From Thermodesulfovibrionales bacterium (GTDB lineage Bacteria > Nitrospirota > Thermodesulfovibrionia > Thermodesulfovibrionales > SM23-35), in assembly GCA_963727725.1 (NCBI GenBank), contig CAVSHJ010000022.1, positions 2,008-66,007 on the forward strand: a DNA stretch of 64,000 nt, in the 5' to 3' direction. Position numbers and translations under genes: made by a program. Of this stretch, positions 37,698 to 57,676 are shown in pieces; position 1 is the stretch's first letter; each line of letters starts with the position of its first letter. The notes under the pieces are model-generated. The model worked only from the letters and a program-made list of their open reading frames with translations. It was not told where the DNA came from and ran no database searches.

Positions 37698-38171
37698 ATG
37701 GATAAACCTATGCGATTCAGAATCAACAGCCCGAAAGTCATCCACGAAACTATTGACGGGGAGACGGTAATTGTCAATCTTGACAGCGGCAATTATTATA
37801 GTCTCGATAACGTGGGAGCCGGTGTCTGGGCTTTGATCGGAGGCGGTTTGCCGGTGCACGAAATTATCCGGGATATAGCCCGCCGCTATATCGGTGAACG
37901 AGAGGAGATGGATCAGGCTATTCATCAATTCGTCGGTCAATTGCAGGAGGAAGGACTGATTGTTACTGATGAATCTCATGTGAACAGCAGTGAACCGGGA
38001 TCGGGGACCCAGGACACAACACGAGCAATGGAAGGACATCCGGTCTTTGAGACTCCTGCCCTCCATAAATACAGCGATATGCAGGATTTACTCCTGCTGG
38101 ACCCCATACATGAGGTTGATGATACAGGTTGGCCGAGTCCTAAAAATGACGTTCCGGTGAGCGATGCATGA
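37698..38171 (+). CDS. PqqD/RRE-domain protein with a C-terminal lasso-leader-like and core-like peptide
   Basis: First ~90 aa (ETIDGETVIVNLDSGNYYSLDNVGAGVWALI..FVGQLQEEGLI) fit the PqqD fold; then a low-complexity linker and FETPALHKYSDMQDLLLLDPIHEVDDTGWP. Confidence 0.85.
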   Translation: MDKPMRFRINSPKVIHETIDGETVIVNLDSGNYYSLDNVGAGVWALIGGGLPVHEIIRDIARRYIGEREEMDQAIHQFVGQLQEEGLIVTDESHVNSSEPGSGTQDTTRAMEGHPVFETPALHKYSDMQDLLLLDPIHEVDDTGWPSPKNDVPVSDA

Positions 38172-38208
38172 GACTATATTGAAGCAGCCTTGAAGTCGAC
38201 AGAATATC

Positions 38209-40020
38209 ATGGATACGATCGAGTCATTGGAAGAACAGGAAGCTTTTTTCCGGGGTGTACATGATCGATTTTTAAAAGCGGTGGCTTCTGTCGGTGCGGT
38301 AAATTCTTACTACAGAATCTGTGACACCTCAGTCTGCCTCTCTTTTGCAGGCGAAGAACTAGTCCCGCATATAACACCTGCCCTGAGTCATCTCGCGATA
38401 CCTGAAGTCGAAAAGCCTGATCTCACAGTGTGTTTATGGGATAGTGTTTCAACCGAGACGGGTATGGTGCCGCCGCCGTGGAAACGCGACCGATATACAT
38501 ACAGGGGAGATATCTGGGGATATAACAGTGTCAGGATAAGAACCGCATTCCACTGGATTGAATTCTCCCTGAACATGCTGGACTTTGAAACGAATACAGG
38601 ACTGTTTTGGGTTGAACATACCCGGAGCCTGCCTTTTTGGGTGCATGCCTCTCCTCTCAGGACATTACTCCACTGGTGGATGGAAAAGAACGGGTGTCAG
38701 CTTGTTCATGCTGCGGCCGTTGGTACGGAAAGCGGGGCAGTCCTCCTGACGGGTAAAGGCGGGATCGGAAAATCAACCGCGGCCCTCTCCTGTTTGAAAT
38801 CAGGTTTTTTTTATCTCGGCGACGACTACGTCGTCACACGGGTGAGTCCGGAGCCATACGTATACACTCTATACAACACCGCGAAATTGGACGCAGATCA
38901 CGTAAAGAACTTTCCTGAGATCTCCCGCTTGATTTCGAATGCCGAAAACCTGAAAGATGAGAAAGCTGTCATATTTCTTTATCCGGAATTCGGCGCGCAG
39001 CTTGTCGGGACGATGCCGCTGAAAGCTGTCGTTGTCCCGCATGTCACAGATCACAGGGAATCGGGTGTTACAAGAATATCTTCCGAAAACGTTCTTCGGG
39101 CAGCATCCTTCACGACCATGACTCAATTGCCGGGTGCAGGTATCAAGACATATGAGTTTCTCAATGAATTATCGGCAAGACTTCCTTGCTTCAGCCTCGA
39201 ATCAGGCCGTGATCTTTCTCATATCCCTGTTGCTGTTTCCGGCTTATTGCAGACCCTTTCGGATGGAAAGATTGCCGATACTCTCAGGAAATCCACCGGA
39301 GAACAACGCCTGGCTCCCAAAGCGTGGCCGGTTGTGAGCATCATATTGCCGGTATTCAACGGAGAGCGATTTATCAGAGAAGCAGTGGAGAGCATCGTGT
39401 CTCAGGGCTATCCTTCCTTAGAGATAATTATCATAGATGATGGTTCCACTGATAAGACAAAGGATATTATTGAAGAAGTGCCGGTTGAGGTACGGTATTT
39501 CAGGCAGGACAACCGCGGCCCCGCAGCTGCCAGGAACAAAGGCGTCAGAGAAGCGACGGGAGATTTTGTTGCCTTTATTGATGTAGATGACCTGTGGCCG
39601 AAAAACAACCTCCATATGCTGGCAGAAGAGCTGCTGGAGGATAAGGACGTTGACGTGGTACATGGGTATGCCCAGCTTGCCCGCTATAACGATGTTACTC
39701 ACGAATGTGAGTATGCCGGAAATCCGGCAGAATCATTTCCCTATTACATCGGAGCTGCGCTGTACCGGAGATCGGTATTTACAAAGGTGGGCCTGTTTGA
39801 TCCGACACTGTTATATGGTGAAGATACTGACTGGTTTAAGCGGGCAGAGGAGTTGAAAGTAAATATCAGGAGACTGGAAGATGTGACCTTGATCGTCCGA
39901 AGACACGGAAAGAATATGACCTCTGCCAAAGACATGGTTGAATTGAATCACCTTCGTGTATTCAAGAAGAGTCTGGATAGAATGCGGGCACGCAGACAGG
40001 CAGACCATGTTCTTCCCTGA
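38209..40020 (+). CDS. HPr-kinase-like P-loop protein fused to a GT2 glycosyltransferase
   Basis: VHAAAV..LLTGKGGIGKST..YLGDD in the N-terminal part; VSIILPVFN, IDDGSTD, FIDVDD, GEDTDW in the C-terminal part. Confidence 0.85.
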   Translation: MDTIESLEEQEAFFRGVHDRFLKAVASVGAVNSYYRICDTSVCLSFAGEELVPHITPALSHLAIPEVEKPDLTVCLWDSVSTETGMVPPPWKRDRYTYRGDIWGYNSVRIRTAFHWIEFSLNMLDFETNTGLFWVEHTRSLPFWVHASPLRTLLHWWMEKNGCQLVHAAAVGTESGAVLLTGKGGIGKSTAALSCLKSGFFYLGDDYVVTRVSPEPYVYTLYNTAKLDADHVKNFPEISRLISNAENLKDEKAVIFLYPEFGAQLVGTMPLKAVVVPHVTDHRESGVTRISSENVLRAASFTTMTQLPGAGIKTYEFLNELSARLPCFSLESGRDLSHIPVAVSGLLQTLSDGKIADTLRKSTGEQRLAPKAWPVVSIILPVFNGERFIREAVESIVSQGYPSLEIIIIDDGSTDKTKDIIEEVPVEVRYFRQDNRGPAAARNKGVREATGDFVAFIDVDDLWPKNNLHMLAEELLEDKDVDVVHGYAQLARYNDVTHECEYAGNPAESFPYYIGAALYRRSVFTKVGLFDPTLLYGEDTDWFKRAEELKVNIRRLEDVTLIVRRHGKNMTSAKDMVELNHLRVFKKSLDRMRARRQADHVLP

Positions 40021-40107
40021 ACGGTTCTCATTTGCTCAAAGTAAACAATTTTTTATGCCTTTTGAAGTTTATGAAATTCCATGCGGCATTTCTGAGCAGG
40101 GTGGAAA

Positions 40108-41409
40108 ATGATGAATCAACTTCTATTGGGGCACCGGGCCGTTTATCGGTTGATTAACGCCGATGAGGCGTTCGATCCGCAAAAACAGGTTCATATCTTC
40201 TGGGAAGGTACCCAGTTTGCAACAACTTCTTTTTCTCTCATAAACCGGGAACTGTGTTCAGGCATTATCGATTCCGGAATTGCAGAACTTACTATAGTGC
40301 CATATGAGCCGGCTCAGTTTGCTGTAGAAGGCAATCCGCGATTTGAAAGACTCGCTGCTCATGATATCCGCATTAAGGGGCTCTCCATTCGTGATCGCGC
40401 AAAGCGGCCGCATGTGTGGGTGCGTCATCAATGGCCTCCCCGGCCAAATCCGCCCGGCAAAGCTAAATGGATTATCATGCACCCATGGGAATATTCAGCA
40501 ATTCCCGGATTTTATGCCGATACCTTTTCCCTTGCCGAAGAAATCTGGACGCCGACAAATTTTTCACGCGATGCCTTTGTATCATCGGGAATTGACCCAT
40601 CGAAAGTCCATGTTGTGCCTAACGGTGTTGACCCTGAGATTTTCTCTCCGGCAGGGGAACCCTTGAGGCTTCCGACAACGAAGCGCTTCAAGTTCCTCTT
40701 TGTCGGGGGGACTATTTACCGTAAAGGGGTGGACATCCTGCTTGAGAGTTACTCACACGCTTTCACCTCTAAGGACGATGTCTGCCTGATTATCAAGGAT
40801 CTTGGAGTGAACACCCTTTACAAGGGGCAAACGGCACAGGATCTTATCAAGAGCTTCCGGAATGAGGAGGGCACGCCGGAGATCCTTTACATTGAGGATG
40901 AATTCAGTCGGGAGCAAATGGCTGGACTTTATCGGGCCTGCGATGTTTTTGTTTCATCCTACCGGGGCGAAGGTTTTTCGCTGCCTGCCCTTGAGGCGAT
41001 GTCAAGTGGTCTCCCGGTCATCGTAACCCGCGGCGGGGCCACAGATGATTTTGTTGATGAAGAAGTAGGCTGGTGTATCGACTCCGCAAGACGTCGTGTC
41101 AGGAAGGTCTATGGCCATGAAGTCGACGGAGAAGGTTTCCTGCTCGAACCGAGCAGGAGGCATCTTGAGGAAATCCTGCGAGAAGCATATAATTCGCCCT
41201 CGGAGATCATGAAGAAATCGATCGAAGGCGCATTGCGGGCGCGAAACCACTGGACATGGAAACATTCTCTACGTCGCCTTCTTTTAAGGATTGATTCACT
41301 GTGCGGGACGAGTATGGGGGTTGATGCACAAAAGGGTTTCAGAGATGCCGACGGAGATACCGCTTTCATAAGGAAGGCGATCACGCAAAAACATAGAGGA
41401 CATGGATAG
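40108..41409 (+). CDS. GT4-family glycosyltransferase
   Basis: VVPNGVD, RKGVDILL, YRGEGFSLPALEAM. Confidence 0.9.
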   Translation: MMNQLLLGHRAVYRLINADEAFDPQKQVHIFWEGTQFATTSFSLINRELCSGIIDSGIAELTIVPYEPAQFAVEGNPRFERLAAHDIRIKGLSIRDRAKRPHVWVRHQWPPRPNPPGKAKWIIMHPWEYSAIPGFYADTFSLAEEIWTPTNFSRDAFVSSGIDPSKVHVVPNGVDPEIFSPAGEPLRLPTTKRFKFLFVGGTIYRKGVDILLESYSHAFTSKDDVCLIIKDLGVNTLYKGQTAQDLIKSFRNEEGTPEILYIEDEFSREQMAGLYRACDVFVSSYRGEGFSLPALEAMSSGLPVIVTRGGATDDFVDEEVGWCIDSARRRVRKVYGHEVDGEGFLLEPSRRHLEEILREAYNSPSEIMKKSIEGALRARNHWTWKHSLRRLLLRIDSLCGTSMGVDAQKGFRDADGDTAFIRKAITQKHRGHG

Positions 41410-42106
41410 ACCTCTGGTAAGTGTCATAGTTGCAGTTTCCGATGGTGAACGCTACATAGGTTCTGCCCTTCACAGTATCTTCAGGCAGAACTATTACCCT
41501 TTTGATATTATTGTTGTTGATGGACAGTCGGTTGACCGTACCGCTGCGATAGCACAATCGTTCAAATCAGTCAAATACATCTATCAAGCGGGACACGGTC
41601 TGGCAAATGGCCGTAATAGGGGAATAGAAGCGGCTCAGGGAGAGTTTATCGCTTTTCTTGACTCTGATGACCTTTGGACACCGGACAAGCTTGGTATCCA
41701 GATTGATTATCTCCTGCGAAACCCTGAACTTCAGTATGTGAATGCATGGGTTCAGTTGTTTGTCGACTGGGGATACAGTCTGAGGTCCAGGTATACGAAG
41801 AAGTTTCTGGAGCAGGCACACGTAGGTCGTACGCCGGGCACGCTGGTAGCTCGAAAGTCTGTCTTTGATCTTGTCGGCCTGTTTAGTCCGGATTTCAACA
41901 TCGCATGTGATGCCGAATGGTTTGTGCGGGCCAATGGCTGCAGGATTCCCATGTTCATTGTCCCCGAGGTTCTGCTTTATAAACGAATTCACGATAATAA
42001 TCTTTCATCCAATGTGAGCATAAACAGGAAGGAGTTAATGGAGGTAATAAGACAATCAATTATGCGGCAACGACAACAGGAACATATAATTCTCTATGGC
42101 AAATGA
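41402..42106 (+). CDS. GT2-family glycosyltransferase
   Basis: LVSVIV, VVDGQS.D, FLDSDD, RIHDNNL. Confidence 0.9.
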   Translation: MDRPLVSVIVAVSDGERYIGSALHSIFRQNYYPFDIIVVDGQSVDRTAAIAQSFKSVKYIYQAGHGLANGRNRGIEAAQGEFIAFLDSDDLWTPDKLGIQIDYLLRNPELQYVNAWVQLFVDWGYSLRSRYTKKFLEQAHVGRTPGTLVARKSVFDLVGLFSPDFNIACDAEWFVRANGCRIPMFIVPEVLLYKRIHDNNLSSNVSINRKELMEVIRQSIMRQRQQEHIILYGK

Positions 42107-42875
42107 AAAGCTGGTGAGCGTGGTCATACCCGTTTATAATGGTGAACGGTATCTTGGCGGAGCAATCGAGAACGTACTGGCTCAGGACTATCGGCCAATT
42201 GAGATAATTGTGATAGATGACGGATCCACCGATAATACGGAACCCGTTGCTCGGAGTTACGGGAGAGATATCGTCTATGCCCACCAGGAAAACCGAGGAC
42301 CGGCAGCAGCCCGTAATAAAGGGCTGCAAATAGCCTCCGGGGACATTGTAGGTTTCCTTGATGTTGATGACCTTTGGAGCGAGAATAAACTCCCGGTTCA
42401 GTTTGCCCGTCTGGCGGACGACCCTTCAGTGGAAATTGTTCTGGGGCTCACTCAGCTTATGAAGTTGCAGGTGGACGAAGAGGGCAGACCTAAATTCGAA
42501 AAATGGCATGATCCTTTCTGCGCGTTTCTGCTCGGCGCGGCACTCTTTAGAAAATCGGTGTTTGAGAAACTGGGATTTTTCGATGAGACGCTTTATCACA
42601 GTGAAGACACTGACTGGTTTCTGCGGATCAGGGAGATGCAGGTCTGTACGACCCTTATAGATGAGGTGAGTCTTTTTTATCGCTGGCACGAGTCCAATAT
42701 GACCCTTGATTCGGCTGGATGTAACAGATATCTTATAAAAGCCCTAAAAAAATCACTTGACAGACGGAGGCGGCAAAACCGCAATCAGGCTGAGTCTCTG
42801 CCCGGACTCTCTTGTATTGCAGAAAAATCCGCCGGAAGACTTCCCGATTCAGGAAAATCACGGGCAAAGGACTGA
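42096..42875 (+). CDS. GT2-family glycosyltransferase
   Basis: VIPVYN, IDDGSTD, FLDVDD, SEDTDW. Confidence 0.9.
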   Translation: MANEKLVSVVIPVYNGERYLGGAIENVLAQDYRPIEIIVIDDGSTDNTEPVARSYGRDIVYAHQENRGPAAARNKGLQIASGDIVGFLDVDDLWSENKLPVQFARLADDPSVEIVLGLTQLMKLQVDEEGRPKFEKWHDPFCAFLLGAALFRKSVFEKLGFFDETLYHSEDTDWFLRIREMQVCTTLIDEVSLFYRWHESNMTLDSAGCNRYLIKALKKSLDRRRRQNRNQAESLPGLSCIAEKSAGRLPDSGKSRAKD

Positions 42876-42879
42876 TCGG

Positions 42880-44103
42880 ATGGCAAAAACTGTGACACCA
42901 AAGCAGATCTGGGAACGCGCCCTCGCGGGCACCAGGTGGCTTGTGCAGCATCAGAATCAGGACGGAAGTTGGGTGGGACTGAAGGATCAGAAAGTGGGTG
43001 CCTTTTATAAGGCGAGCTGGGCATTTTCGGAGACCGGGCAATCTGCTGCAGCCCACCGTGCCCTCAACTATGTCCATCGTCACTTTTTCACTGAAGCAGG
43101 TGACTTCTTATACAGTCAGCCGGCTGAGGTCGGTTCTTTGCTCGGTAGTTATCCTTACGTCAACTCTTATATTATCATAGGCAGCATGCGTGCCGGACGT
43201 TACGATATCGCGCTGCCTGCGGTCTCTTTTTTGCTTGCACGGCAAGCTGCGGATCATGGGGGATTCTATTCGCGCTTGACTCAACAGGGAGTGAAGACCA
43301 TGGCCGATACCATATCTTCAGCTACAGCGGGCATCGCGTGTCTGGCCGCCGGGGAACTTGAAGCAGCCCGACGCGTTGCCGACTACCTGGGCCGTATGGT
43401 CCGTCTTCAGCCCCGGCCGGATGATCGCTTTTTCACTACCATTGACGCAGAGGGACATCTATACACTAACGTCAAGGATGACGACGACGCGTTTCTGCGT
43501 ACCATCGACACCGGGAAAGCAGATCAGTGCTGGTACGCTGTTGGACTACCGCTGGCTTTCCTCGTTCTGCTGGAAAGTGCGACGAGTGATACCAGGTACC
43601 GGGAGCTGGCACAATGGTACTTCGATTTTCAAGAGCGCTGTGTTAATCCCTGGGATGGCTACTCAAGCGGTAAAGCCGGATGGGGGTGTGCGATGCTCTA
43701 TCGCGTTACGGGGGAGTTGCGCTACCGGGACATTGCGTTGCACGTTGCGCAAAGCATTATGGACAGGCAGAGAAGAGACGGCAGCTGGCTGTCCGGCAAG
43801 AGCAAGCAAGGGGAACTCACTGACCCCGACTTTGATTTGACAGGCGAATTCACCCTGTGGCTGTCACTGATTTCCTCCAATGTGCTTGCGCGGGATTCAT
43901 GCTGCATCCCTCTCGCAGTCAATGAGACAAGAATTCCAAAACCGAAGCGTACACAAAGTCTGAGAGAAACATTGCGCCGGACTGCCGCAGCGCATTACCG
44001 AATATTGAGAAACGAGGGTCTTGGGAAGTACTTGATGCGCTCTTATCATTACAGAAAGGGGCAGGTCTTAAGGTGGATCAGGAAAGAGTCCCACGCAAAC
44101 TAG
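42880..44103 (+). CDS. Alpha/alpha-barrel protein with QW (prenyltransferase/squalene cyclase-like) repeats, function unknown
   Basis: WLVQHQNQDGSW, FLLARQ..HGGF, MDRQRRDGSW, LYRVTGELRYRD; likely start ATG 42880. Confidence 0.6.
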   Translation: MAKTVTPKQIWERALAGTRWLVQHQNQDGSWVGLKDQKVGAFYKASWAFSETGQSAAAHRALNYVHRHFFTEAGDFLYSQPAEVGSLLGSYPYVNSYIIIGSMRAGRYDIALPAVSFLLARQAADHGGFYSRLTQQGVKTMADTISSATAGIACLAAGELEAARRVADYLGRMVRLQPRPDDRFFTTIDAEGHLYTNVKDDDDAFLRTIDTGKADQCWYAVGLPLAFLVLLESATSDTRYRELAQWYFDFQERCVNPWDGYSSGKAGWGCAMLYRVTGELRYRDIALHVAQSIMDRQRRDGSWLSGKSKQGELTDPDFDLTGEFTLWLSLISSNVLARDSCCIPLAVNETRIPKPKRTQSLRETLRRTAAAHYRILRNEGLGKYLMRSYHYRKGQVLRWIRKESHAN

Positions 44104-45122
44104 CAAAGGCGGAACGTAACTCCGTAAAACTTGTACGACGGCTGGGACGAACGGGGTTTGAAGTGAATGTTCTCGGAGTGGGAGGACACACTTATCCGGT
44201 CGGCGACAGCCCTGATTGTTTCATGACCCCGGACGCTCGCGCTAAGCTTATTAGTCGTCTCGTATCTTCCGGCGTAAATTATTTTGATACGACTGACATG
44301 TGTGAAGTGGAACTGTTAGCTGATTCTTTCAAACGTGCGGATATAAGGGAGAATGTGGTCGTTTCTCTTCATGGAGGGCGCATCTCGGACCCACAATGGT
44401 TTGAAAAGCTTCGCCCGGGAATTGAATCAAGACTCGATATTTTGGGGTATGAGCGTGCACCTTTATTCATCACGAGTGTCGGGGATGGCGACGCCTCTTA
44501 TGCTGACTTAGTTGCAGCCTGCCAAGCGATGACAAAACTTAAGGAGGAAAACCTCGTTCAGAACATCGGTCTCAGTTGCCACACGACAAGTCTGTTCCCC
44601 GCGGTCAGCCGTGTCATCCGTGAAACCGATATGATTGATTATGTCATGGTGCGGTTTAATTGGAAAGACCGGCGGGCTGACGAGGAGCTTTTTCCGGCAG
44701 CTGAGGATCACGATGTCGGCATCGTGCTGATGAAAATTTTTTGTTGGGATTGTTACCCATCACAGTGGGAGAGAAGGATCAGTGTCTTCGAGCCCCTGAG
44801 TTGCGAAAGCTGCGTTGAGGACAATTCATCTCTGACACCGGCCCAACGAAATATATTGTGGTGCATTCAAAATTCAGCTTGCGACGTTATCGTACCCTCA
44901 ATGAATACCATGCATGAGGTCGAAGAGAATATTCGGGCCCTCAAGTCGATAGATGCGGATGTTGTCACGGAGGACTTTGAGAAGTACAGCGGCAGACTCT
45001 GGGACAAGAAGGAGATCAAAACTCTGGCTCTATATGCGGAAAGCAAAATAATACGTGAGAGGGCCGAGTTTTTGTTGAACCCAAAGCGAACGGCGCCGGC
45101 ACATTTTAATGCGGACTATTAA
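44073..45122 (+). CDS. Aldo/keto reductase family protein (3' end possibly frameshifted)
   Basis: RRLGRTGFEVNVLGVG, GVNYFDT, IGLSCH, DVGIVLMK, PSMNT..EVEENI. Confidence 0.8.
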   Translation: MDQERVPRKLAKAERNSVKLVRRLGRTGFEVNVLGVGGHTYPVGDSPDCFMTPDARAKLISRLVSSGVNYFDTTDMCEVELLADSFKRADIRENVVVSLHGGRISDPQWFEKLRPGIESRLDILGYERAPLFITSVGDGDASYADLVAACQAMTKLKEENLVQNIGLSCHTTSLFPAVSRVIRETDMIDYVMVRFNWKDRRADEELFPAAEDHDVGIVLMKIFCWDCYPSQWERRISVFEPLSCESCVEDNSSLTPAQRNILWCIQNSACDVIVPSMNTMHEVEENIRALKSIDADVVTEDFEKYSGRLWDKKEIKTLALYAESKIIRERAEFLLNPKRTAPAHFNADY

Positions 45123-45972
45123 AGCGCATTACAGGATATTGAAGAACGAAGGTCTCAAGAAGTACCTTCAGCACTCTTATCATTATAGAAAGGGGCAACT
45201 TTTCAACTGGCATCAGAAAGATCCGGACCTGATGTTATTACGTCAGAATGCACGGGGTGTCATGAGAGAGAAACGTCCTTTGGTAAGTGTTGTCATAACG
45301 GTATTTAACGGTGAAGAATATCTGCGGGAAGCCATCGAAAGCGTGCTCGGCCAGACCTACCGGTCGTTTGAACTCATTGTGGTAGACGACGGCTCGACAG
45401 ACAATAGCGGTGCGATAGCGAAGAGCTTTGCTTCACAACTGCGATACTTCTACCAGGATAACAGCGGTCAGGGAGCCGCTCTCAACAGGGGCATAGAGTT
45501 ATCCGGAGGATGCTTTCTCTCCTTCCTCGATGCCGATGATCTCTGGACGGAAGATAAATTAATGCATCAGGTGGCGGCCTTTGATAATAATCCTGATGTG
45601 GATATGGTATTCGGACAGGTGGAACAGTTTTACAGTTCCGAGCTTGATGAGAATCAGAGGAAAAGGATCAGGATTCCTGCCAAGATTATGCGGGGATTTT
45701 TTAAGGGCAGCATGCTTATTAAGCGGGATTCCTTTTTTCGAGTCGGGACATTTGACACAAGGTGGAAGTTGGGAGACTTTATTGACTGGTATTTGAGGGC
45801 GATGGAAAAGGGCCTTAGGAGCGTTATGCTGAATGAAGTCGTTATGTTGAGGAGGATCCATGCGGACAATATGGGCATTCGTGAGCGCAAGTTGCGCCCC
45901 GAGTTTGTAAGAATTCTCAAGGCCTCTCTTGATCGGCGCCGCAAGATTCATAATGCTGAGACAGACATATAG
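45109..45972 (+). CDS. GT2-family glycosyltransferase (domain starts ~45262; upstream part may belong to the AKR)
   Basis: LVSVVITVFN, VDDGSTD, FLDADD, RRIHADN. Confidence 0.9.
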   Translation: MRTIKAHYRILKNEGLKKYLQHSYHYRKGQLFNWHQKDPDLMLLRQNARGVMREKRPLVSVVITVFNGEEYLREAIESVLGQTYRSFELIVVDDGSTDNSGAIAKSFASQLRYFYQDNSGQGAALNRGIELSGGCFLSFLDADDLWTEDKLMHQVAAFDNNPDVDMVFGQVEQFYSSELDENQRKRIRIPAKIMRGFFKGSMLIKRDSFFRVGTFDTRWKLGDFIDWYLRAMEKGLRSVMLNEVVMLRRIHADNMGIRERKLRPEFVRILKASLDRRRKIHNAETDI

Positions 45973-45975
45973 TTC

Positions 45976-46755
45976 ATGGTAAAACGGACGATTAGAGAAA
46001 CCATGCCTCTTGTGAGTGTTATCATACCGGCATATAACTGTGAAAGGTTCATCGCAGAAGCGGTGAAGAGCGTAAGGTTACAAAACTATGAACCGCTCGA
46101 GATTATTATAATCGATGACGGTTCAACAGACGGGACCCAAGCATGTGTAAAAAGCCTTGGTGAGGACATCCGCTATGTGTATCAGTCGAACAGGGGCCCG
46201 GCGGCAGCCCGCAACACAGGTATCGCAATGGCCAGGGGCGAAATGATCGCATTTCTCGATGCCGACGATTACTGGCCTGCAAACAAATTGAAAGTTCAAA
46301 TGGCGCGTATGAACAGAGATCCGGAAATGGAAGTCGTTTTAGGTCGCATCCGGTGTACCGGGGTATTGACGGAAGCAGACAGAAAAATCCGTTTTGAGGG
46401 TCCGGACAATACCATGATAAGCATTTGCCTGGGCAGTGGTGTTTTCAGAAAATCCGTTTTTGACAAGGTGGGCCTCTTCGATGAATCCTTACGCCATTAT
46501 GAAGATCATGACTGGTTCCTGCGTGCCAGGGAGAAGGACATTTCGATAATAATACTGAAAGATATTACGCTTCATAATCGCCGGAATGAATACAGCATGA
46601 GCCGCAGAAAGAATAAGAATGATCCAAGCATGATCCGGATACTCAAGAAATCGTTAGACCGTCGCCGTCAGCAGAAAAAGGGTCCCGTTGAGTTATCCCC
46701 CGATTTTTTTGACTTTGACGAGGGGAAGACATCACAGAGGAATATAAAGCCGTGA
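45976..46755 (+). CDS. GT2-family glycosyltransferase
   Basis: VSVIIPAYN, IDDGSTD, FLDADD, YEDHDW. Confidence 0.9.
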   Translation: MVKRTIRETMPLVSVIIPAYNCERFIAEAVKSVRLQNYEPLEIIIIDDGSTDGTQACVKSLGEDIRYVYQSNRGPAAARNTGIAMARGEMIAFLDADDYWPANKLKVQMARMNRDPEMEVVLGRIRCTGVLTEADRKIRFEGPDNTMISICLGSGVFRKSVFDKVGLFDESLRHYEDHDWFLRAREKDISIIILKDITLHNRRNEYSMSRRKNKNDPSMIRILKKSLDRRRQQKKGPVELSPDFFDFDEGKTSQRNIKP

Positions 46756-48608
46756 ACAGAAAGATAAAAATATTATTTTGGACTCCGTTTTTTCTCCCGG
46801 ACATAGGCGGCATTGAAACATTAAGCGCCAAATTGCTGCCTGCGCTGCAAGAGCAGGGTTATGATATCACGGTACTTACTTCCCACGGGAAATATGACGT
46901 CGCCGATAAAACAGAGTTTAATGGTATACCGGTTTTCCGTTTTCATACGCGAAATGCCATAGGAAAGCGCGACCTGTCCCGGATATTCGAGATCCGCGCA
47001 CAGGTGGCCAGGCTCAAACAGTCCTTCAAGCCGGACCTTATACACATACACATGAGCGACCCGAGCGTCTATTTTCATCTGAGTACCGCTGCTGCCTGTC
47101 CCGCACCGACAATAGTGAGCATACACCAGGACATTGAGTATTATGGTTTTCAGGGCGGCGAGGATACATTGCTTGGGAATGCGCTTCATATGGCCGATTG
47201 GGTTACTGCCGTTTCCAGTGCGACATTATCCGATCTGCTCCGTATTGCACCGGAGATAAGGAATTGCTCTTCTGTAATTTATAATGGGGTTGACCCGCCG
47301 GATATTGTCCCCGACCCTATTTCTTTCGATCCGCCCCGGATTTTGTGTCTGGGAAGACTTATACATGCTAAAGGCGTTGATCTGGCAATTGCAGCTTTTG
47401 CCTCACTCTTGAATCGCTGGCCGAGGGCACGCCTGACAATTGTTGGCGAGGGACCACAGCGAAATCAATTGGAAAAACAGGCCGCCGGGCTTGGTCTCGC
47501 GGACTCGGTGAAGTTTACAGGAATGGTCAGGCCTGAAGACGTTCCCGCACTTATGAATCAGGCTACAATCGTCGTCATGCCCTCACGGGTCGAGGGTTTC
47601 CCGATGCGGGTGCTTGAAGTAGCGCAAATGGCAAGACCGGTGGTGGCAACTCCGGCAGGTGGTTTGCCGGAGGCGATTGTTCATCAACAGACCGGATTAA
47701 TAGTGGAGCACGAAAATAGTCCGGCTATCGCCGATGCAGTTGGCTTTTTCCTTGACCATCAGGAGACAGCTTCCAGAATGGGTGAGGCTGCGCGTTCGCG
47801 GGTGCTCAAAATGTTCAGTCTGAAGAGTTGCGTGGACTCCTATAGCAGACTCTACCGCAGGATCGTCGGCGAATACCCGATGCTCGCTTATGACGGAGCG
47901 ACAGTGACGGGTATTCCACCTCTGATAAGCATCATTGTGCCGGTTTACAACGGTGAAGAATATTTGTCCGAGGCAATTGACAGCGTTTTAACTCAAACCT
48001 ATCGCACTACCGAAATCATTCTGGTCGACGATGGTTCAACCGACGGGAGCCCAAAAATCGCGGAGCTTTTTTCGCCTGTCCTGAAGTACTGCTATCAAGA
48101 GAATGCCGGTACCGGCGCGGCACGAAATAGAGGGGTAGAACTGGCGCAGGGCAGTTTCTTTGCGTTCCTGGATGCTGATGATGTCTGGCTGCGGGACAAA
48201 CTCCTGATTCAGATGGCAGCGTTTTACGATGATCCTGAAATTGATATTGTATTCGGTCATGTTAAGCAGTTCTACAGCCCGGAATTGGACGGGTTGCAAG
48301 GAGCAGACTGCGTCTGTACGGATGAAGCGATGCCGGGATTCCTGCCCTGTACGATGTTAATAAAACGGGAAGCATTCTTTCAGGTGGGTCTGTTTGAGAC
48401 CAATTGGCGGCTGGGGCAGGACGTGAGCTGGATAATGCGGGCCCGAGAGCGCGGTCTCCGTGAGGTGATGGTGCCTGACGTTATATATATGCGACGACTT
48501 CACAAGAACAATAAAGGTATCACCCATCGACAATTCGGCAGGGACCGCATCAGAATACTGAAAGCGTCACTCGATCGGCGGCGCGGGCTGCGGGGACAGC
48601 AAGGGTAA
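46752..48608 (+). CDS. GT4-GT2 fusion glycosyltransferase
   Basis: GT4 (IYNGVD, GRL..AKG, PSRVEGFP..LE) followed by GT2 (IIVPVYN, VDDGSTD, FLDADD). Confidence 0.9.
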   Translation: MNRKIKILFWTPFFLPDIGGIETLSAKLLPALQEQGYDITVLTSHGKYDVADKTEFNGIPVFRFHTRNAIGKRDLSRIFEIRAQVARLKQSFKPDLIHIHMSDPSVYFHLSTAAACPAPTIVSIHQDIEYYGFQGGEDTLLGNALHMADWVTAVSSATLSDLLRIAPEIRNCSSVIYNGVDPPDIVPDPISFDPPRILCLGRLIHAKGVDLAIAAFASLLNRWPRARLTIVGEGPQRNQLEKQAAGLGLADSVKFTGMVRPEDVPALMNQATIVVMPSRVEGFPMRVLEVAQMARPVVATPAGGLPEAIVHQQTGLIVEHENSPAIADAVGFFLDHQETASRMGEAARSRVLKMFSLKSCVDSYSRLYRRIVGEYPMLAYDGATVTGIPPLISIIVPVYNGEEYLSEAIDSVLTQTYRTTEIILVDDGSTDGSPKIAELFSPVLKYCYQENAGTGAARNRGVELAQGSFFAFLDADDVWLRDKLLIQMAAFYDDPEIDIVFGHVKQFYSPELDGLQGADCVCTDEAMPGFLPCTMLIKREAFFQVGLFETNWRLGQDVSWIMRARERGLREVMVPDVIYMRRLHKNNKGITHRQFGRDRIRILKASLDRRRGLRGQQG

Positions 48609-48647
48609 TATATTTTTCGGTGCGTTTCCGAAAACGTGAATGAGTAA

Positions 48648-49665
48648 ATGTATTCTATTTGTACCATGAAGAAATTAATAGATTTCATATACGGCAGTGC
48701 ATGGGGTTTGGTGAGAAGGTTCAGATTTTACTTTAGCCGTCAAGGATTATGCTATTTTTCTGATTATAGAAACAGAAAGACTATTAAAATGACGGGCATC
48801 GGAAATTGTGAAAGCAGGGTCCGCTTTTATCCTTCGGTCCATCATTTTATTCATAATATGCCCTGTCTTTTTCCCAGGCGGAATTATGATTATCTGGTTG
48901 CCCAGAATTTTCTTTACGAAGAATTTTTATCGTGCCGAAAGCCAAAAGTATTTTTTACGCTGGAACCCCCTCCAACCATGACTCAGGAGACCAGGAGAAA
49001 TTTGCAGCGTGAAGCATTGAAGCCGTTCCTCTATCTGTATGATGAACCCGATATTAACAAGCGAATGTTTTATCCGTCCCTCGCTGACCACAGAGAAGAA
49101 ATTATCAGGCACCTTGAAGAAACACTTGAGGAAAAACGCCCGCGGCTTTGCTGTATCATTAACCGATATTCGGAACATCCGGAACTGGATCTTGTTCGCC
49201 AAAGAATTCTGTTTGTCAAGACGATGGGAAGCGATATCGACATTTACGGGGCAGAGCCATGGGGTGTGTCGAACAAATGGAGAACATTTCCCTAATTATT
49301 ACGGCATGGCGGAAAACAAACAGGAAATACTGAAAAAATATAATTTTGTACTGGCATTTGAGAACAGCAATTTCCCGGGATATATCACTGAAAAGATCAT
49401 CGACGCCTTTAAAGCCGGCACGGTTCCGCTCTACTGGGGCGGAGGAAAGTTACTGCAGGAGATTTTTCCCTCAGATTGTTACATAAACTGCAGTAATCAG
49501 GACCCTGCGAGAATCCACCGGATGATAAAGGATATGCCGCAGAAGGACATTGTTTCATTCAGAAGGGCAGCCATAGAATTTCTGAAATCCGATATGGCTG
49601 ATCGATTTATGGGCAGTTATTTGAAGCAGGAAATTGTAAAGAGGCTGGAAGGCGCACATATATGA
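48648..49665 (+). CDS. GT10 (alpha-1,3-fucosyltransferase-like) protein, frameshift near 49290
   Basis: KYNFVLAFENSNFPGYITEKIIDAFKAGTVPLYWG in 49039..49665; N-terminal part in 48648..49295. Confidence 0.8.
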
Positions 49666-49668
49666 TGA

Positions 49669-50829
49669 ATGAAGAGATTGTTTGTGAATACAAGGAAGTA
49701 TAGCCGCCACTGCCTGCCTTCGTCAGAGCAGGAATTGCTCTTGCGGGCTGCTCTCTTAAAGGGGACAGACTCCGTTGAGGCGTGGAAAGAATGGAAGTCA
49801 TCTGTTGACGTAGAACAGGTCGATGCGGCTTCCCATCGAATGTTGCCGCTGCTTTATCGCAACCTGCGGGCCCTTGGAATCAAAGACCCTTCGATGGGTA
49901 AATATAAAGGCGTTTACCGTCACACATGGTACAAGAACCAGATATTGTTCCATGCCATCGCTTCTCTTCTCCGTTCTTTTGAAGGTGCAAATATACAGAC
50001 CATGATACTCAAGGGAGCTGCCCTGACCCTGCTTTACCATAGAGATTATGGTCTGCGCCCGATGAACGATTTCGACGTTCTCATTCGACCGGACAAGGTC
50101 CTTCCTGCAATCAGGTTATTAGAGACGCTGGGATGGTCGCCGATAGATTTCGTGCCGACGGAGGAATATATCTCCGTGAGTTATTCACACGGATTTAAAA
50201 ACAGCGCCGGTCAGGAATTCGATCTTCATTGGCATCTTTTGTCACAGTCCCGCGGGATGAATGCCGACGATGATTTCTGGAATGGAGCGGTAACGGCCGA
50301 CATTAATGATGTTGCTGCATATACCCTGAATCCGGCCGATCAATTGTTGCATGTCTGCATTCACGGGGCGAGATGGAATTTCATACCGCCATTCCGCTGG
50401 GTGGCCGATGCAATGACCGTTCTTGATACCTCACAAGCCGGGATTGACTGGAACAGACTTATCGGGCAGGCTGAAAAGCGACATTTGGTCTTACCGCTGC
50501 TTGATACACTGAGCTATTTGAAAGAGATATTTGGCGCTCCTATTGCACCGGAAATTTTCAGAAGCCTTGAAGATATACCTGTACCGAATATTGAACGCAT
50601 AGAATATAAAATCGCCGTCATCCCTCCCACACAGTGGACAGCCGTGTTAGACCTCTGGTGCCAGCATTGCCGTCTGGCGGAAGATTCGGGTTTGGCGCGC
50701 AAGATTGCGGGATTCCCGAAATTTCTGCAGAATATATGGGGAATACCTCCGTGGAGATTGCCTCTCTACGGTCTGCTAAAAACAATGACATGGCATACAA
50801 ACCGTCTGTCGAAGAAACCTCCGAAATAG
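49669..50829 (+). CDS. Nucleotidyltransferase family protein (NTP_transf_5-like)
   Basis: ILKGAAL..Y..GLRPMNDFDVL, FDLHW, HVCIHG, RWVAD. Confidence 0.8.
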   Translation: MKRLFVNTRKYSRHCLPSSEQELLLRAALLKGTDSVEAWKEWKSSVDVEQVDAASHRMLPLLYRNLRALGIKDPSMGKYKGVYRHTWYKNQILFHAIASLLRSFEGANIQTMILKGAALTLLYHRDYGLRPMNDFDVLIRPDKVLPAIRLLETLGWSPIDFVPTEEYISVSYSHGFKNSAGQEFDLHWHLLSQSRGMNADDDFWNGAVTADINDVAAYTLNPADQLLHVCIHGARWNFIPPFRWVADAMTVLDTSQAGIDWNRLIGQAEKRHLVLPLLDTLSYLKEIFGAPIAPEIFRSLEDIPVPNIERIEYKIAVIPPTQWTAVLDLWCQHCRLAEDSGLARKIAGFPKFLQNIWGIPPWRLPLYGLLKTMTWHTNRLSKKPPK

Positions 50830-50853
50830 TCTCGGGAATAGATCGTGGCAACT

Positions 50854-53136
50854 CTATCTTCTTGCCGGGGTTCCTGTCGTCTTCCCCGGGTTCTTCATCT
50901 GATAAGCTCTGGCAAGATTATCCCGAAAAGTTGGATTTTTGGGATCCAATGCCGCCGCAACCTTAAGTTGTTCGATAGCCTTGTCTGTTAAGCCTTTTTC
51001 AGCATAGGCGATACCCAGGTTTTCGCGGGCTTCTGCATGCCGGGGATTTGACTTTATCACGGTCCGATATTCTTCTATCGCTTTATCCTTGAGACCTTTG
51101 CGCCAGAACGCGACACCCAAATTGTAATGTGCAACAATGAAGTCCGGTTTCAATCTTAGAGCTAATTGATAGTGTTCAATCGCCTGGTCCAGACTCCCGT
51201 TTTTGAAAAAGGTGTTTCCCAGCCGGTAATGAAGGTCCGCGCTATCCATGTTCCGGTTTACTTCACTCCGGTATTGTTTTTTCGCACCGTCAGACCGGCG
51301 TTGAGACCCATATGCGTTGTCCAGATTATTGTGTGCCTCAGCATAATCGGGTTTGAGATCTAACGCCGTCCGGTATTGCTCTATTGCCTTGTCGTGCAGA
51401 CCCTGAGACAGATATGCGTTGCCCAGATTATTGTGCGCCTCGGCGTAAGCAGGCTTAAGGTCTAATGCGATCCGGTATTGCTCTATTGCCTTGTCTGACA
51501 GGCCCTGAGACAGATATGCGTTACCCAGATTATTATGTGCCTCGACATAATCCGGCTTGAGGTCTAACGCGATCCGGTACTGTTCCATTGCCTTATCGTG
51601 CAGACCTTTAGACCAATATGCATTCCCCATATCATTATATGCCTTCGCGTAATTTGGCTTCAGATTTAACGCGATCTGGTATTGTTGTATTGCCTCATCA
51701 GACATGCCCTTCGACTTGTACGCAAGGCCCAGATCAAGATGTGCTCTGGCGTTATCAGGACTCTTCTCCACCACGTCTTCCCATAGGAGCGTTCCTTCTT
51801 TCCAGACACCGTTCCTCACCAAAGTCAGGACAAATAAAAGGAGCGCGACGACGGCGAAGATTACCTCTTTCTTTATCCTGACACCCGGCCTGTCCGTATA
51901 TATAAGCAGGGAAGACAGAGCGAGAAAAAGCCCGTAACCCGGCAGATAGTTTCTGTGTTCAAAATACGGGTCCAGTCCGACAGCTATAAAGCTCTCGAGA
52001 GAAATGGTTATCAGATACCATATTATCCCAAAAGAAATGAGCGGCAATTTCTTGATATACCGCAGTGAAAAGAAGACCATCGAGGCGATAAAAAAAAGAG
52101 AAAACAGTGTTGTGATCGGATGAAACAGATCCCTTGATACGGGATAGGCACTGGAATAGTCAAATACCATATATGAAGGAAGGGGAACGAAGACAAGAAA
52201 TATGTACCGGGAGATCACTCTCAGCTCTGTCAGGATATACTCGACCGGCGTCCAGCGGATATCAATGCCCGTCCATCCGTAACTTCCCATGGGCTTATGA
52301 GGGCTTGAGAAGAGCGTAATAATCTTTACAATAAACCCGCCTGCATGGAAATAGTAAGCCACAGCCGTACCCAGGATTATCCCAATGCCGGCGATAGGTA
52401 TGAATCTTTTCCTGAATTCACTCCATCGGAACGAAGATATAAAGACAAAGTCATAAACCATCAGCGCAGGCAGAACCATCACCGCATTTTCCTTCGAAAA
52501 TATGGCCAGGATAAAAAACAGAGCAGAACCGGCATAATACAAAATAGACTTCTTACCCGGATTCACGGCACCCCTTCACGTACGAGATTATTCCTGCAAA
52601 GGAAAACATACCGGCCATTATGGCCATCCTTTGAGTGATATAATTCACCGCGAAGTTTGTATGGGGTGGAGCAAGAAAAGCGTTGCCGCAAAGAGTGCGA
52701 TATAAAAGGCTGTTCTGCTGTGCTCCGGCTTTCCGTATTTGTCTCTCATGGACGGAAGGTTCAATGTCATATAGGTAAGATAAAAGACGAGGAGACCCGA
52801 GAAAATATGAAAGAGTATGTTCGTTATCCTGAATGCAGCAAGGTTCATGCCTGACAGGTAATAGTTCAGCGCAAAAGAGAGTTTGGCAATAGAGCGCGCG
52901 GACAAAGACAGGGAACCTGCAATATCCTTCAGCTTCGAAGAAGTTATATAGGTGGGGTCGTCCAAAACCAAAGGTCCATGGAGAGATCGAGCATATGCGA
53001 AAAATGTGAGGAGCACCACTGAGAAGAGGAGACCGGCGGGCAAATAATTCGTCTTGCCTCTTTTCCCCGTCGGTTCTTCCTCTTGCTTTGGAGGAGTGGG
53101 TTTCTTACCTGTTTTAAGGGAGCTCTTCCTGCTCAT
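50854..53136 (-). CDS. TMTC-like multipass membrane protein with C-terminal TPRs, frameshifted near 52570-52650
   Basis: LVLDD, LHPIQT, SKENA, FEHRNYLP, then TPRs; ORFs 52645..53136 and 50854..52566. Confidence 0.8.
51310..51710 (-). repeat. About four tandem 102-bp TPR-coding repeats
   Basis: Repeated ATATGCGTT(G/A)CCCAGATTATT...CGGTATTGCTCTATTGCCTTGTC units encoding AEAHNNLGNAY.SQGL.DKAIEQYR.ALDLKP. Confidence 0.85.
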
Positions 53137-53160
53137 AACCGCTTTCGGTCTTCAGTCTCT

Positions 53161-54276
53161 TCATAGTCTATTCACAGCGTATTTTAATACCCCTTCGAAT
53201 TGAACCGCAATATCGTCCCACAGGAATTGAGCGGCAAATTCCCGGCCCTTTTTTCCCAAGGCGTCCCTTTTCCCGGCGTCTGCAAGTAATAGCCTCATCT
53301 TTTCTGACAGCGCATCTGCCGAACCGGAGAGGAAACTGAGACCGAATCCCTCCTTCGAGACAAAAGCAAGTTCGGGGATATCGCTTGCGATGACCGGTTT
53401 TCCGCACGCGGCAGCCTCAAGAATACTTATCGGCGAAGATTCATGACGGGACGGCAGGACTAATATTCGGGCCCCTGAGAGAAGCCTCACTTTTTCAATG
53501 CCTGTCACAAAACCTGCATAGTCGATTCTCTCCCTGAGGAAAGACGGACTCCCCGATATGAGCTTACGGAAGCTGTCAAATTCATACCCCGCAAGGATTA
53601 ACCGCAGATTCGGATATTCGGGACTTATCCTCTCAAACGCGTTTATCAGGAGGTCGAGCCCCTTTGTATAAATGTCTATCCGGCTGAGAAAAAGGATATA
53701 ATCCATGTCTTCAGAGCGGGATTCAAGAAGTTCCCTGTTTATGCCGTTAGGAATGACATGACACATTCTTGCCTCTTTTCTGCGACGGACCATCACCTTA
53801 TCCCGTGTTATGTCAGAGACAAAAATAAAAGCGTCATAAAGGTTGGGATAGAATCCTTCAACAAGATAAATAGGGACGTAATAGAAGGGGGTGAACTTTC
53901 TGAACGAATGTTTTTCCATTATGCCCTGAACCTGAAGTACTACAGGTGTCCTGGTAAAATACTTCGCAAAAAAAGGTGTTGTAGGCAGAAAGTTTTCAAC
54001 TATGATGTCAAAATCGTTGCCGTGTCGTCTCACGAAGTCCGTTGCACGGACTATATATGCCAGGACGCTCTTTGTAAGATTCCTGTTTTCGGCTCCTACA
54101 AAGATATGTTTCAGACCCTCAATCTCGCGGTTTTCAGCAAGCGGATATTTCATGCAGAGAAGCGTGATATCATGAGTGTCCTTTAATCTCCTGTAAATCT
54201 CATAGGCCCTTACACCGGCCCCGCCGAATCCAAAGGGGCTACCGAAGCTTTCATAAATGAGTTGAAGAATCTTCAT
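53161..54276 (-). CDS. GT4-family glycosyltransferase
   Basis: IPNGIN, SRIDIYTKG, PSRHESSPISILEA. Confidence 0.9.
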   Translation of the reverse strand: MKILQLIYESFGSPFGFGGAGVRAYEIYRRLKDTHDITLLCMKYPLAENREIEGLKHIFVGAENRNLTKSVLAYIVRATDFVRRHGNDFDIIVENFLPTTPFFAKYFTRTPVVLQVQGIMEKHSFRKFTPFYYVPIYLVEGFYPNLYDAFIFVSDITRDKVMVRRRKEARMCHVIPNGINRELLESRSEDMDYILFLSRIDIYTKGLDLLINAFERISPEYPNLRLILAGYEFDSFRKLISGSPSFLRERIDYAGFVTGIEKVRLLSGARILVLPSRHESSPISILEAAACGKPVIASDIPELAFVSKEGFGLSFLSGSADALSEKMRLLLADAGKRDALGKKGREFAAQFLWDDIAVQFEGVLKYAVNRL

Positions 54277-54289
54277 TGTCTGAGTTCCA

Positions 54290-57633: not shown

Positions 57634-57676
57634 GGCTAAGGCGAATCGTCTGGCCCCACATCGAAGTCATCATATC

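Follow-up and report, generated by a model that had tools for sequence, protein, structure and literature searches.

A glycosyltransferase-rich operon of a Thermodesulfovibrionales bacterium carries a widespread module with a leader-like peptide tethered to a RiPP recognition element

Introduction

What is made by a compact run of glycosyltransferase (GT) genes that begins with a peptide-recognition protein and a kinase-like protein and ends with a nucleotidyltransferase (NTase)? The question is raised by the plus-strand operon at positions 37698-50829 of a 64,000-nt stretch of DNA, called the window below, from a Thermodesulfovibrionales bacterium of the phylum Nitrospirota (assembly GCA_963727725.1, contig CAVSHJ010000022.1, positions 2,008 to 66,007 of the forward strand). 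An earlier note, made from the letters of the window, had read this operon as a pathway for a peptide that is made on the ribosome and modified after translation (RiPP). In that proposal a kinase and the NTase prime a residue on a protein in which a RiPP recognition element (RRE) is fused to a peptide, and nine GT domains build a glycan on it. The operon was analyzed here by profile searches, structure models and comparison with related loci. At a probability of roughly 0.45, we read it as the GT-enriched Nitrospirota version of a widespread, unnamed module. This module would be a relative of the phospho-lasso and LPP systems that lacks cyclase and peptidase, keeps its peptide tethered and makes a protein-bound phospho-glycan.

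The nearest characterized chemistry is described in two papers. LPP clusters contain an SpI-like peptidase, a discrete RRE, the HprK-like kinase LppK, the NTP transferase LppN, an MsbA-like exporter and a separate precursor (Popov et al., Nat Commun 2026, PMC13381572). They are described as free of a cyclase and embedded in GT-rich capsule loci, and are termed restricted to Bacillota, with many gains and losses inferred (PMC13381572). LppK adds several phosphates to Ser3 of the LppA core; the precursor motif is YxxPxVLxHQxIxFETxxS with the Ser phosphorylated, and [Y/W]xxPx[L/V/I/F/A] is given as the RRE-binding motif of lasso and LPP leaders (PMC13381572). In pseudomycoidin, PsmK phosphorylates the C-terminal Ser, and the attachment of one or two hexoses (+162/+324 Da) to this phosphate depends on PsmN (PMC6993621). 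The respective papers call both PsmN and LppN uncharacterised NTP transferases (PMC6993621, PMC13381572). The earlier note knew of no characterised example of such a gene combination. This has been overtaken by the LPP clusters, which according to that paper of May 2026 (PMC13381572) have RRE, HprK-like kinase, NTase and exporter without a cyclase.

Results

An RRE joined to a leader-like motif and a conserved tail

The first gene of the operon encodes a 157-aa protein, here called the RRE-tail protein. It is composed of an RRE (residues ~10-92), a variable linker (~93-116), a leader-like motif F117xxP120xL122 and a conserved tail. When the RRE was compared with the PDB by profile, it matched TbiB1 (7.5e-19), PbaB1 (4.3e-15), LppB (3.9e-8) and TfuB1 (1.5e-7). 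In line with this, the AlphaFold2 (AF2) model resembled TbiB1 in Foldseek with a TM score of 0.89-0.91. The NCBIfam model lasso_PqqD_Bac gave 54 bits, under its cut-off of 80. The N-terminal domain is a lasso-B1-type RRE, and the B1 component of a lasso cluster, a discrete or fused RRE of PqqD type, is thus present.

The tail of the window protein reads Y125-S-D127-M-Q-D-LLLL-D135-P-I-H138-E-V-D-D-T-G-W145-P146. The family consensus is [FY]xxPxL, followed by the almost invariant DMQDLLLLDPIH[DE]VDxxGWP. In 34 diverse sequences, D127, D135, P136 and W145 are invariant, and P120, L122, Y125, M128, L131-L134, H138, V140, G144 and P146 are at least 90% conserved. The F and L of the motif are kept in all 116 close relatives that match the pattern. 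Conservation of the tail exceeds that of the RRE domain itself. In the AF2 model the pLDDT exceeds 94 in the RRE, falls under 50 in linker residues 97-111, rises to 83-87 in residues 111-130 and is ~55 beyond. Residues 122-125 form a beta-strand between disordered stretches. An isolated strand at such pLDDT implies, within this model, that it pairs with the RRE sheet, in a docking geometry that we infer.

The combination of RRE and motif is repeated in longer relatives. Among 148 newly listed profile-search matches, 17 proteins exceeded 220 aa, including RRE::HPrK fusions; a word-index search for longer homologues had missed the fused forms, a false negative of that index. In 17 multi-RRE relatives with a total of 41 RRE units, the strict motif [FYW]xxPx[LVIFAM] comes after 29 of the units, in 27 of these 29 cases at a spacing of +15 to +22 residues. 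The DPxH...GWP segment is found at most once per multi-RRE protein. We know of no description of a multi-RRE protein of this kind. With [FY]xxPxL at the start of the tail, the strand in the AF2 model and the motif behind 29 of 41 units, the RRE-peptide fusion claimed by the earlier note is supported.

The tail was also searched for without the RRE, in proteins of 30-85 aa. Six matches were obtained from seven candidates. All six short ORFs start inside the last RRE helix and thus look like truncated ORFs. None of 1,032 small ORFs in 36 related loci is conserved across phyla, and the only small-ORF families found are those common to three near-identical Smithella loci. A leader-like motif is present in 29 small ORFs of the related loci, of which 0/29 are conserved. 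In most loci the core is so compact that a precursor gene would not fit.

The family is large. The exhaustive profile search returned 25,583 proteins at E<=1e-3, a figure that includes RREs in general, and 1,312 clusters (50% identity) at E<=1e-30, and the word-index search returned 2,182 clusters at 90% identity. The 120 listed relatives bear source names that are either generic (such as 'PqqD family protein' or 'hypothetical protein') or automatic labels evidently unrelated to the family, and the ESM Atlas gave generic 'PqqD family' clusters only.

A kinase-like domain fused to a glycosyltransferase

The second gene encodes a fusion of an HPrK-like P-loop domain (residues ~1-355) with a GT2 domain of the GT-A fold (~375-600). 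In a profile search with the N-terminal domain, HPr kinase/phosphorylase (HPrK/P) made up the top five PDB matches (E 1.6e-5 to 4e-3), and an alignment to HPrK/P takes in the P-loop GKGGIGKST, His167 and Asp205-Asp206. In 17 sequences, H167, G182-x-G184-x-x-G187-K188-S189 and D205-D206 of the kinase-like domain are invariant, as are D411, D458-x-D460-D461, E538, D539 and D541 of the GT2 domain. NCBIfam HprK_rel_B gave 30.2 bits (cut-off 200), and a full-length HPr kinase/phosphorylase match, that is TIGR00679 or PF07475 above cut-off, was not found for the window protein. When the whole model was submitted to Foldseek, GT-A neighbours filled the top 50.

Natural fusions of 781-849 aa join three RRE units, of which the first has the full tail, to an HPrK-like domain. 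Three RRE units and an HPrK-like domain are found in P0131, P0134, P0136, P0160 and P0190, and two to three RRE units in P0129, P0130, P0133 and P0135. Read as Rosetta-stone fusions, these proteins suggest a joint action of RRE-tail protein and kinase-like domain. In locus L050, the genes that come after such a 3xRRE::HPrK gene (66-2456) encode GT2, GT2, NTP_transf_5 and an ABC-2 permease; two GT2, NTase and exporter persist despite the changed architecture. A complex prediction of HPrK::GT2 with the RRE-tail protein, run without controls, scored 0.21 and 0.19 (mark 0.32).

The module recurs in many phyla

Species-representative genomes were scanned with the HPrK::GT2 protein. This yielded 38 loci, in most of which the match was full length, with 42-74% identity among the full-length relatives. 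The loci belong to Nitrospirota, Dadabacteria, Smithella, Bacteroidota, Lentisphaerota, Rokubacteria, Eisenbacteria, Alphaproteobacteria, Verrucomicrobiota, Bacillota and one Mycobacterium isolate. An HPrK-like N-domain is present in 36 of the 38, and the 29 of those with at least 4.5 kb of upstream flank were used for counting. The RRE-tail protein, aligned through its C-terminal tail, is encoded in 29/29 loci. An NTase is found in 27 of them, or 28 when a gene of 27% identity in L036 is counted, and is missing from L030. An ATP-binding cassette (ABC) exporter is present in 17 loci, with one more, split, in L014. Seven anchors without an RRE gene have 0-1.9 kb of upstream sequence and are therefore uninformative.

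Clustering of all ORFs of at least 90 aa gave the same picture: NTase, GT2, HPrK::GT2, RRE-tail and ABC exporter were the only families found in more than five loci. Of the GTs, the core includes the GT2 that is fused to the kinase and at least one further GT2. The module is thus made up of an RRE with tethered peptide, HPrK-like::GT2, at least one more GT2, NTP_transf_5 and usually an ABC exporter. Recurrence of these genes without a cyclase had been named by the earlier note as the test of its proposal, and the counts above, with no recurrent cyclase, answer it strongly in the affirmative. Its further suggestion that nine GT domains build the glycan exceeds the evidence, since only the kinase-fused GT2 and at least one other GT2 accompany the core from locus to locus.

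Usually the genes stand in the order RRE-tail, (GT2), NTase, ABC, HPrK::GT2, GT2. In the window and in loci L012 and L013 this order is rearranged to RRE-tail, HPrK::GT2, many GTs and the NTase last, with the exporter absent. The N-domain was detected in 3/301 sampled genomes of the window's phylum, its own genome included, which indicates a patchy distribution. Identities of ~57% between phyla suggest horizontal transfer.

Neighbouring genes were scanned in the 146 nearest non-core ORFs out of 321 candidates, all within 2.9 kb of the core. A peptidase or Asn-synthase was found neither among the 25 commonest Pfam families of these neighbours, a count in which single-member families are unlisted, nor among the clustered ORFs. 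Radical SAM/SPASM is the commonest extra family near the core (Radical_SAM, 6 of the 146 ORFs), followed by GlcNAc_2-epim (4) and Epimerase (4). Second, divergent sets stand beside the module at L017 2683-5308, L025 18-2507 and L047 4459-7695, with NTases of 24-26% and RREs of 26-31% identity; the L047 set also has an HPrK-like gene.

Lasso, peptidase and polysaccharide machinery

The genome (2.33 Mb in 36 contigs, 85% complete) was searched for the enzymes of lasso biosynthesis. The B2 peptidase family Transglut_core3 (PF13471) gave no match in it and is not among the recurring families of the related loci. Asn_synthase was detected at three places, the third a weak match on contig C25 (33.7 bits). 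The two strong matches retain glutamine-amidotransferase domains and lie among GT and Mur-ligase genes on other contigs. They are therefore not lasso-type cyclases, and these AsnB homologues were rejected as candidates. Thus the absence of cyclase and B2 peptidase, reported before for the window, extends to the genome at its 85% completeness, the weak C25 match aside.

A scan of the 40 larger window ORFs detected no priming GT, Wzx or Wzy, in agreement with the previous statement that the operon lacks them. Of the machinery of a Wzm/Wzt-type or Wzx/Wzy polysaccharide locus, Bac_transf was seen on contig C20. An SpI peptidase of LppS type was not found in the window.

The lone TIGR02228 signal peptidase match above cut-off in the genome lies on contig C9 (55.5 bits, cut-off 51.85) and is of archaeal type. 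It is part of a second RiPP-like cluster outside the window (C9:9738-13940; L008 6739-10941), which encodes a Peptidase_C25, a 106-aa PqqD/RRE protein, a radical SAM enzyme, an HPrK-like protein and the TIGR02228 peptidase. An ORF at 12273-12473 of this contig codes for 60-66 aa that include the leader-type motif YEKPRL and have a C-terminus rich in Cys. The LPP core of SpI, RRE and HprK, here together with radical SAM, is thus met in a Nitrospirota metagenome-assembled genome (MAG), although LPP has been reported from Bacillota only.

Nucleotidyltransferase, exporter and accessory enzymes

In 31 NTases, G116, R130 and D136 are present in all, and D134 in 97%. The DxD formed in this region agrees with the DxD mutated in PsmN by the pseudomycoidin authors (PMC6993621). 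No PDB relative of the NTase was found by sequence. By analogy, the operon appears to contain an LppN/PsmN-type NTP transferase, where the PF14907 membership of LppN and PsmN is deduced from the descriptions in their papers.

The exporters of the related loci are proteins of 560-580 aa with fused transmembrane and nucleotide-binding domains. Their PDB neighbours are of ABCB type (Sav1866, PCAT1, MsbA, BmrA), which do not discriminate between peptide and lipid cargo. All ABC2_membrane matches of the genome lie outside the window contig.

The protein described by the earlier note as a QW-repeat barrel is better described as an AprG-like (alpha/alpha)6-barrel. It has no Pfam or NCBIfam match and is clearly homologous to AprG (PDB 9lfi/9c95; E 5.2e-40 over residues 48-378), an atypical transaldolase that makes the eight-carbon sugar (octose) of apramycin, as stated in PMC13707489. 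The likely true start of its gene is the ATG near 42880. The gene adjoins that of the aldo/keto reductase (AKR) in the window, and a homologue is also found at L013 14527-15894. The pairing of AprG-like protein and AKR hints at a higher-carbon sugar in the product. The accessory GT4, GT10, AprG-like and AKR genes are limited to the nearest relatives L012, L013, L039 and L041; orthologues of the operon GT4 (40108) are found in L012 and L013 only, and AKR orthologues in L012 and L013.

Organization of the operon and its surroundings

The operon consists of 12 genes with intergenic gaps or overlaps of at most 87 nt (Table 1). Domains were assigned with Pfam, and the core proteins were also scanned with NCBIfam, which gave zero above-cut-off matches for any of them. 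All 12 genes lie where the earlier note had placed them on the plus strand, with agreeing Pfam domains, and its count of nine GT domains is matched by the Pfam tally.

Table 1. Features of the operon and its convergent flank, in window positions
Feature	Coordinates	Strand	Evidence and remarks
RRE-tail protein, 157 aa	37698..38171	+	Pfam PqqD 54.9 bits, residues 22-88
HPrK-like::GT2 fusion, 603 aa	38209..40020	+	Glycos_transf_2 122.3 bits (377-486); Hpr_kinase_C 23.5 bits (166-211)
GT4 glycosyltransferase	40108..41409	+	Pfam Glycos_transf_1 61.5 bits; lineage-specific accessory
GT2 glycosyltransferase	41402..42106	+	Pfam 99.7 bits
GT2 glycosyltransferase	42096..42875	+	Pfam 118.7 bits
AprG-like (alpha/alpha)6-barrel, putative sugar transaldolase	42757..44103	+	PDB match to AprG
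Aldo/keto reductase (AKR)	44073..45122	+	Pfam Aldo_ket_red 47 bits
GT2 glycosyltransferase	45109..45972	+	Pfam 119.4 bits
GT2 glycosyltransferase	45976..46755	+	Pfam 131.4 bits
GT4-GT2 two-domain glycosyltransferase	46752..48608	+	Glycos_transf_1 140 bits, Glycos_transf_2 113.4 bits
GT10-type (fucosyl)transferase	48648..49665	+	Glyco_transf_10 54.9 bits; two reading frames
NTP_transf_5 (Pol-beta-type) nucleotidyltransferase	49669..50829	+	PF14907, 142.6 bits
Convergent glycan flank (context, non-core)	50854..58699	-	TPR protein, 163-aa unknown, four GT4, GDP-mannose 4,6-dehydratase

The convergent flank also encodes methyltransferases and an epimerase, and one of its four GT4 genes is split at 54290-55194. 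Upstream of the operon, Pfam identified PBP1, FtsY, hydrogenase genes, a MacAB-TolC-like pump and a PMT_2 GT-C enzyme. This PMT_2 (ArnT/PMT-like GT-C) gene lies at 24526-26178, 12 kb upstream of the operon. In the Smithella locus L016 a PMT_2 gene (12520-14148) stands directly 3' of the HPrK::GT2::GT2 gene. The PMT_2 neighbour may provide a periplasmic transfer step.

In the GT10 gene, a single additional base at ~49287 has given rise to two overlapping ORFs (48648-49295 and 49039-49665). Using the intact L012 orthologue as tblastn query, the frame switch was located at 49288-49292. The base at 49287 is absent from contigs of two public runs (X1 and X9, from two studies), and the GT10 orthologues in L012, L039 and L041 are unbroken, with 334-341 aa. 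An assembly error or a strain-specific change thus accounts for the break, and a frameshift as a genuine feature of the lineage was dismissed. Similar splits affect the GT4 gene of the flank, the NiFeSe hydrogenase large subunit (32552-34115) and AsnB (C5:80412-82323). The frameshift-like breaks in this MAG are probably assembly indel errors.

Metagenome contigs from peat and wetland runs of several studies span the whole operon (37600-50900) at ~96-98% identity. Relatives of the organism that carry the operon are thus present in peat and wetland habitats.

Discussion

Comparison with known systems

Measured against the account of Popov et al. (PMC13381572), the window family and LPP have in common the RRE, the NTP transferase and the MsbA-like exporter, and the kinase, HprK-like in LPP, is putatively so in the window family. 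They also share the lack of a macrolactam cyclase, the [Y/W/F]xxPx[L/V] motif, GT-rich loci and a patchy distribution. In contrast to LPP, the leader-like motif and a conserved segment of 25-30 aa lie within the RRE protein of the window family, and no separate LppA-like precursor was found in it. It has no recurrent SpI-like peptidase, its kinase is fused to GT2 and a second GT2 belongs to the core. The window RRE is closer to TbiB1 and PbaB1 than to LppB. Its tail has no invariant Ser and matches LppA at the first six positions only ([FY]xxPxL). Finally, the window family spans many Gram-negative phyla, whereas LPP is called Bacillota-restricted in that text.

The likeness to paeninodin and pseudomycoidin comprises the lasso-B1-type RRE, a putative HPrK-like kinase, the PsmN-type NTP transferase, the ABC exporter and the YxxPxL leader logic. 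According to PMC6993621, pseudomycoidin also offers a precedent for a phosphate followed by hexose on a peptide. Unlike these phospho-lasso systems, the window family has no macrolactam synthetase or B2 peptidase, either in the genome or in the related loci. The tail has neither a Thr at -2 nor a Gly1/Asp-Glu7-9 core, no separate precursor was found, the peptide is tethered to the RRE and a GT2 is fused to the kinase.

Two further systems invite comparison. In borosins, the core peptide is the C-terminus of its own modifying enzyme. The modified segment would here likewise be a C-terminal extension of a pathway protein; the carrier differs in being the recognition domain and not the modifying enzyme, and a release peptidase is not evident. 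Glycan assembly of the Wzm/Wzt or TagGH type proceeds on undecaprenyl phosphate and depends on an ABC transporter. Several cytoplasmic GTs and an ABC exporter are common to both, and L050 is a variant with an ABC-2 permease. The core of the window family, in contrast, has no priming phosphoglycosyltransferase, and RRE-tail protein, kinase and NTase occupy the place where lipid priming would be expected. A description of an RRE with a tethered tail or of a kinase-GT2 fusion was not found in the open literature, a scope outside which subscription journals and supplements lie.

Proposed pathway

In the pathway that we propose, the lasso-B1-type RRE would bind its own C-terminal [FY]xxPxL strand in cis, as the motif, its fixed spacing and the strand of the AF2 model suggest. 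Docking would present the segment Y-[ST]-D-M-Q-D-LLLL-D-P-I-H-[DE]-V-D-x-x-G-W-P to the HPrK-like domain, which by analogy with PadeK, PsmK and LppK would phosphorylate this acidic segment. NTP_transf_5 could then place a first sugar-type unit on the phosphate, as the PsmN-dependent hexosylation suggests. The kinase-fused GT2 and its partner GT2 would lengthen the chain, a role proposed from their obligatory fusion and co-occurrence. In this lineage, the additional GT2, GT4 and GT10 enzymes, the AprG-like transaldolase and the AKR may elaborate the glycan, with fucose presumably supplied through the neighbouring GDP-mannose dehydratase. The product would be a small phosphoglycoprotein, taken over by the ABC exporter in most lineages. 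Since no peptidase is conserved, it probably stays on the protein of ~150 aa.

The module could be seen more generally as a protein-primed glycan assembly line. An RRE-held, phospho-glycosylated peptide would then prime a glycan made by GT2 enzymes (here also GT4 and GT10) for ABC export, as a peptide alternative to undecaprenyl phosphate that has spread horizontally across more than 10 phyla. We consider this broader proposal decidedly doubtful.

The acceptor and alternative explanations

Several observations weigh against the proposed pathway, whose main weakness is the acceptor. No Ser, Thr or Tyr of the tail is invariant, a difficulty also for the priming by kinase and NTase that the earlier note suggested, and the position matching the phospho-Ser of LPP is the invariant D135. 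From the sequences, the invariant D127, D135, P136 and W145 would fit a binding or structural motif equally well as a substrate. The tail is internal in the 3xRRE::HPrK fusions, so that C-terminal-Ser chemistry of the paeninodin type cannot be general. The similarity to the kinase is local (~50 residues), and the Hpr_kinase_C score of 23.5 bits is below the cut-off of 33.3. No activity of LppN was seen on heterologous expression, and the end product of the LPP pathway is given as unknown (PMC13381572). The ABC exporter is absent from the window operon and from its two closest relatives, L012 and L013, and an orthologue was not found in the genome, where the best match has 42% identity and covers the nucleotide-binding domain only. 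A second NTP_transf_5 gene (215 bits; C20:12616-13791, L009 7617-8792) is surrounded by the genes of an ordinary sugar cluster, among them those for a Bac_transf priming enzyme, two DegT aminotransferases, Polysacc_synt_2 and GT2s; no RRE or kinase was detected among the ten ORFs scanned around it. The NTP_transf_5 family may therefore not be tied to peptides. As to the acceptor, the commonest candidate is the S/T that follows an aromatic residue. In 133 diverse motif-bearing representatives the aromatic position before it is Y in 97, F in 33 and H in 3, and the next position is T in 83, S in 20, D/E in 15 and another residue in 15. One may speculate that D/E at the S/T site is phosphomimetic.

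These weaknesses leave weight to the explanation that the RRE-tail protein is a scaffold or regulator, in which a self-capped RRE and the DPxH...GWP segment recruit or gate enzymes and exporter for a conventional, non-peptide product, be it a free or lipid-linked glycan or a phosphoglycan. A pattern of invariant D, D-P and W without invariant Ser, Thr or Tyr suits an interaction motif, and the presence of one tail beside several motif-bearing RRE units in multi-RRE proteins would suit a scaffold. The module is always accompanied by GT2s and sits in glycan islands, and NTP_transf_5 is found in a plain sugar cluster on C20. ABC-2 permeases of the Wzm/TagG type are typical of glycan export, and L050 has one. 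On the other side, lasso-B1-type RREs, to which the window RRE is closest, are experimentally known only as binders of peptides for modification, and among the recurring companions of the core there is no priming phosphoglycosyltransferase, Wzx or Wzy. Peptides are also the substrates of the three kinases of this type that have been characterised (PMC13381572; PMC6993621). A scaffold is thus somewhat unlikely, and it keeps substantial weight through the weakness of the acceptor, the glycan context on C20 and the ABC-2 variant. Less likely still is a classical RiPP pathway whose precursor, and possibly peptidase, are encoded elsewhere. The tethered motif would then be an autoinhibitory pseudo-substrate that is displaced by the precursor, and the C9 signal peptidase might process the latter. 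The C9 cluster with its RRE, radical SAM, HPrK-like and TIGR02228 proteins and its YEKPRL ORF fits this idea, and LPP precursors are separate genes (PMC13381572). It is made improbable by the 36 loci, which have no small ORF conserved across phyla and are mostly too compact for a precursor, and by the lack of a peptidase among the 25 commonest families of the 146 neighbour ORFs. Moreover, the tail outdoes the RRE in conservation and occurs free of it only in six apparently truncated ORFs. It could finally be argued that the operon is an ordinary O-antigen or exopolysaccharide locus that has a PqqD-like gene beside a P-loop domain and a nucleotidyltransferase by chance, for it is dominated by GTs and flanked by more GT4, GDP-mannose dehydratase and methyltransferases. 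This is scarcely credible, since the trio of RRE-tail, HPrK::GT2 and NTase recurs in 27-29 of 29 loci and more than 10 phyla while the other GTs vary, and since natural RRE::HPrK fusions exist.

Implications

RREs are known as adaptors for separately encoded leaders. Here adaptor and leader-like peptide are one polypeptide, a unit that is repeated in tandem-RRE proteins and in some lineages fused to the kinase. Its members occur in many uncultured Gram-negative phyla. LPP and the paeninodins, the only relatives that have been characterised, are by contrast reported from Bacillota alone. Should the tail be the substrate, phospho-glycosyl RiPP chemistry would be extended to a protein-bound form and the obligatory kinase-GT2 fusion would gain a function; the silence of LppN in the absence of partner enzymes might also be explained. 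If the tail is instead a scaffold motif, an RRE would have been co-opted for glycan assembly.

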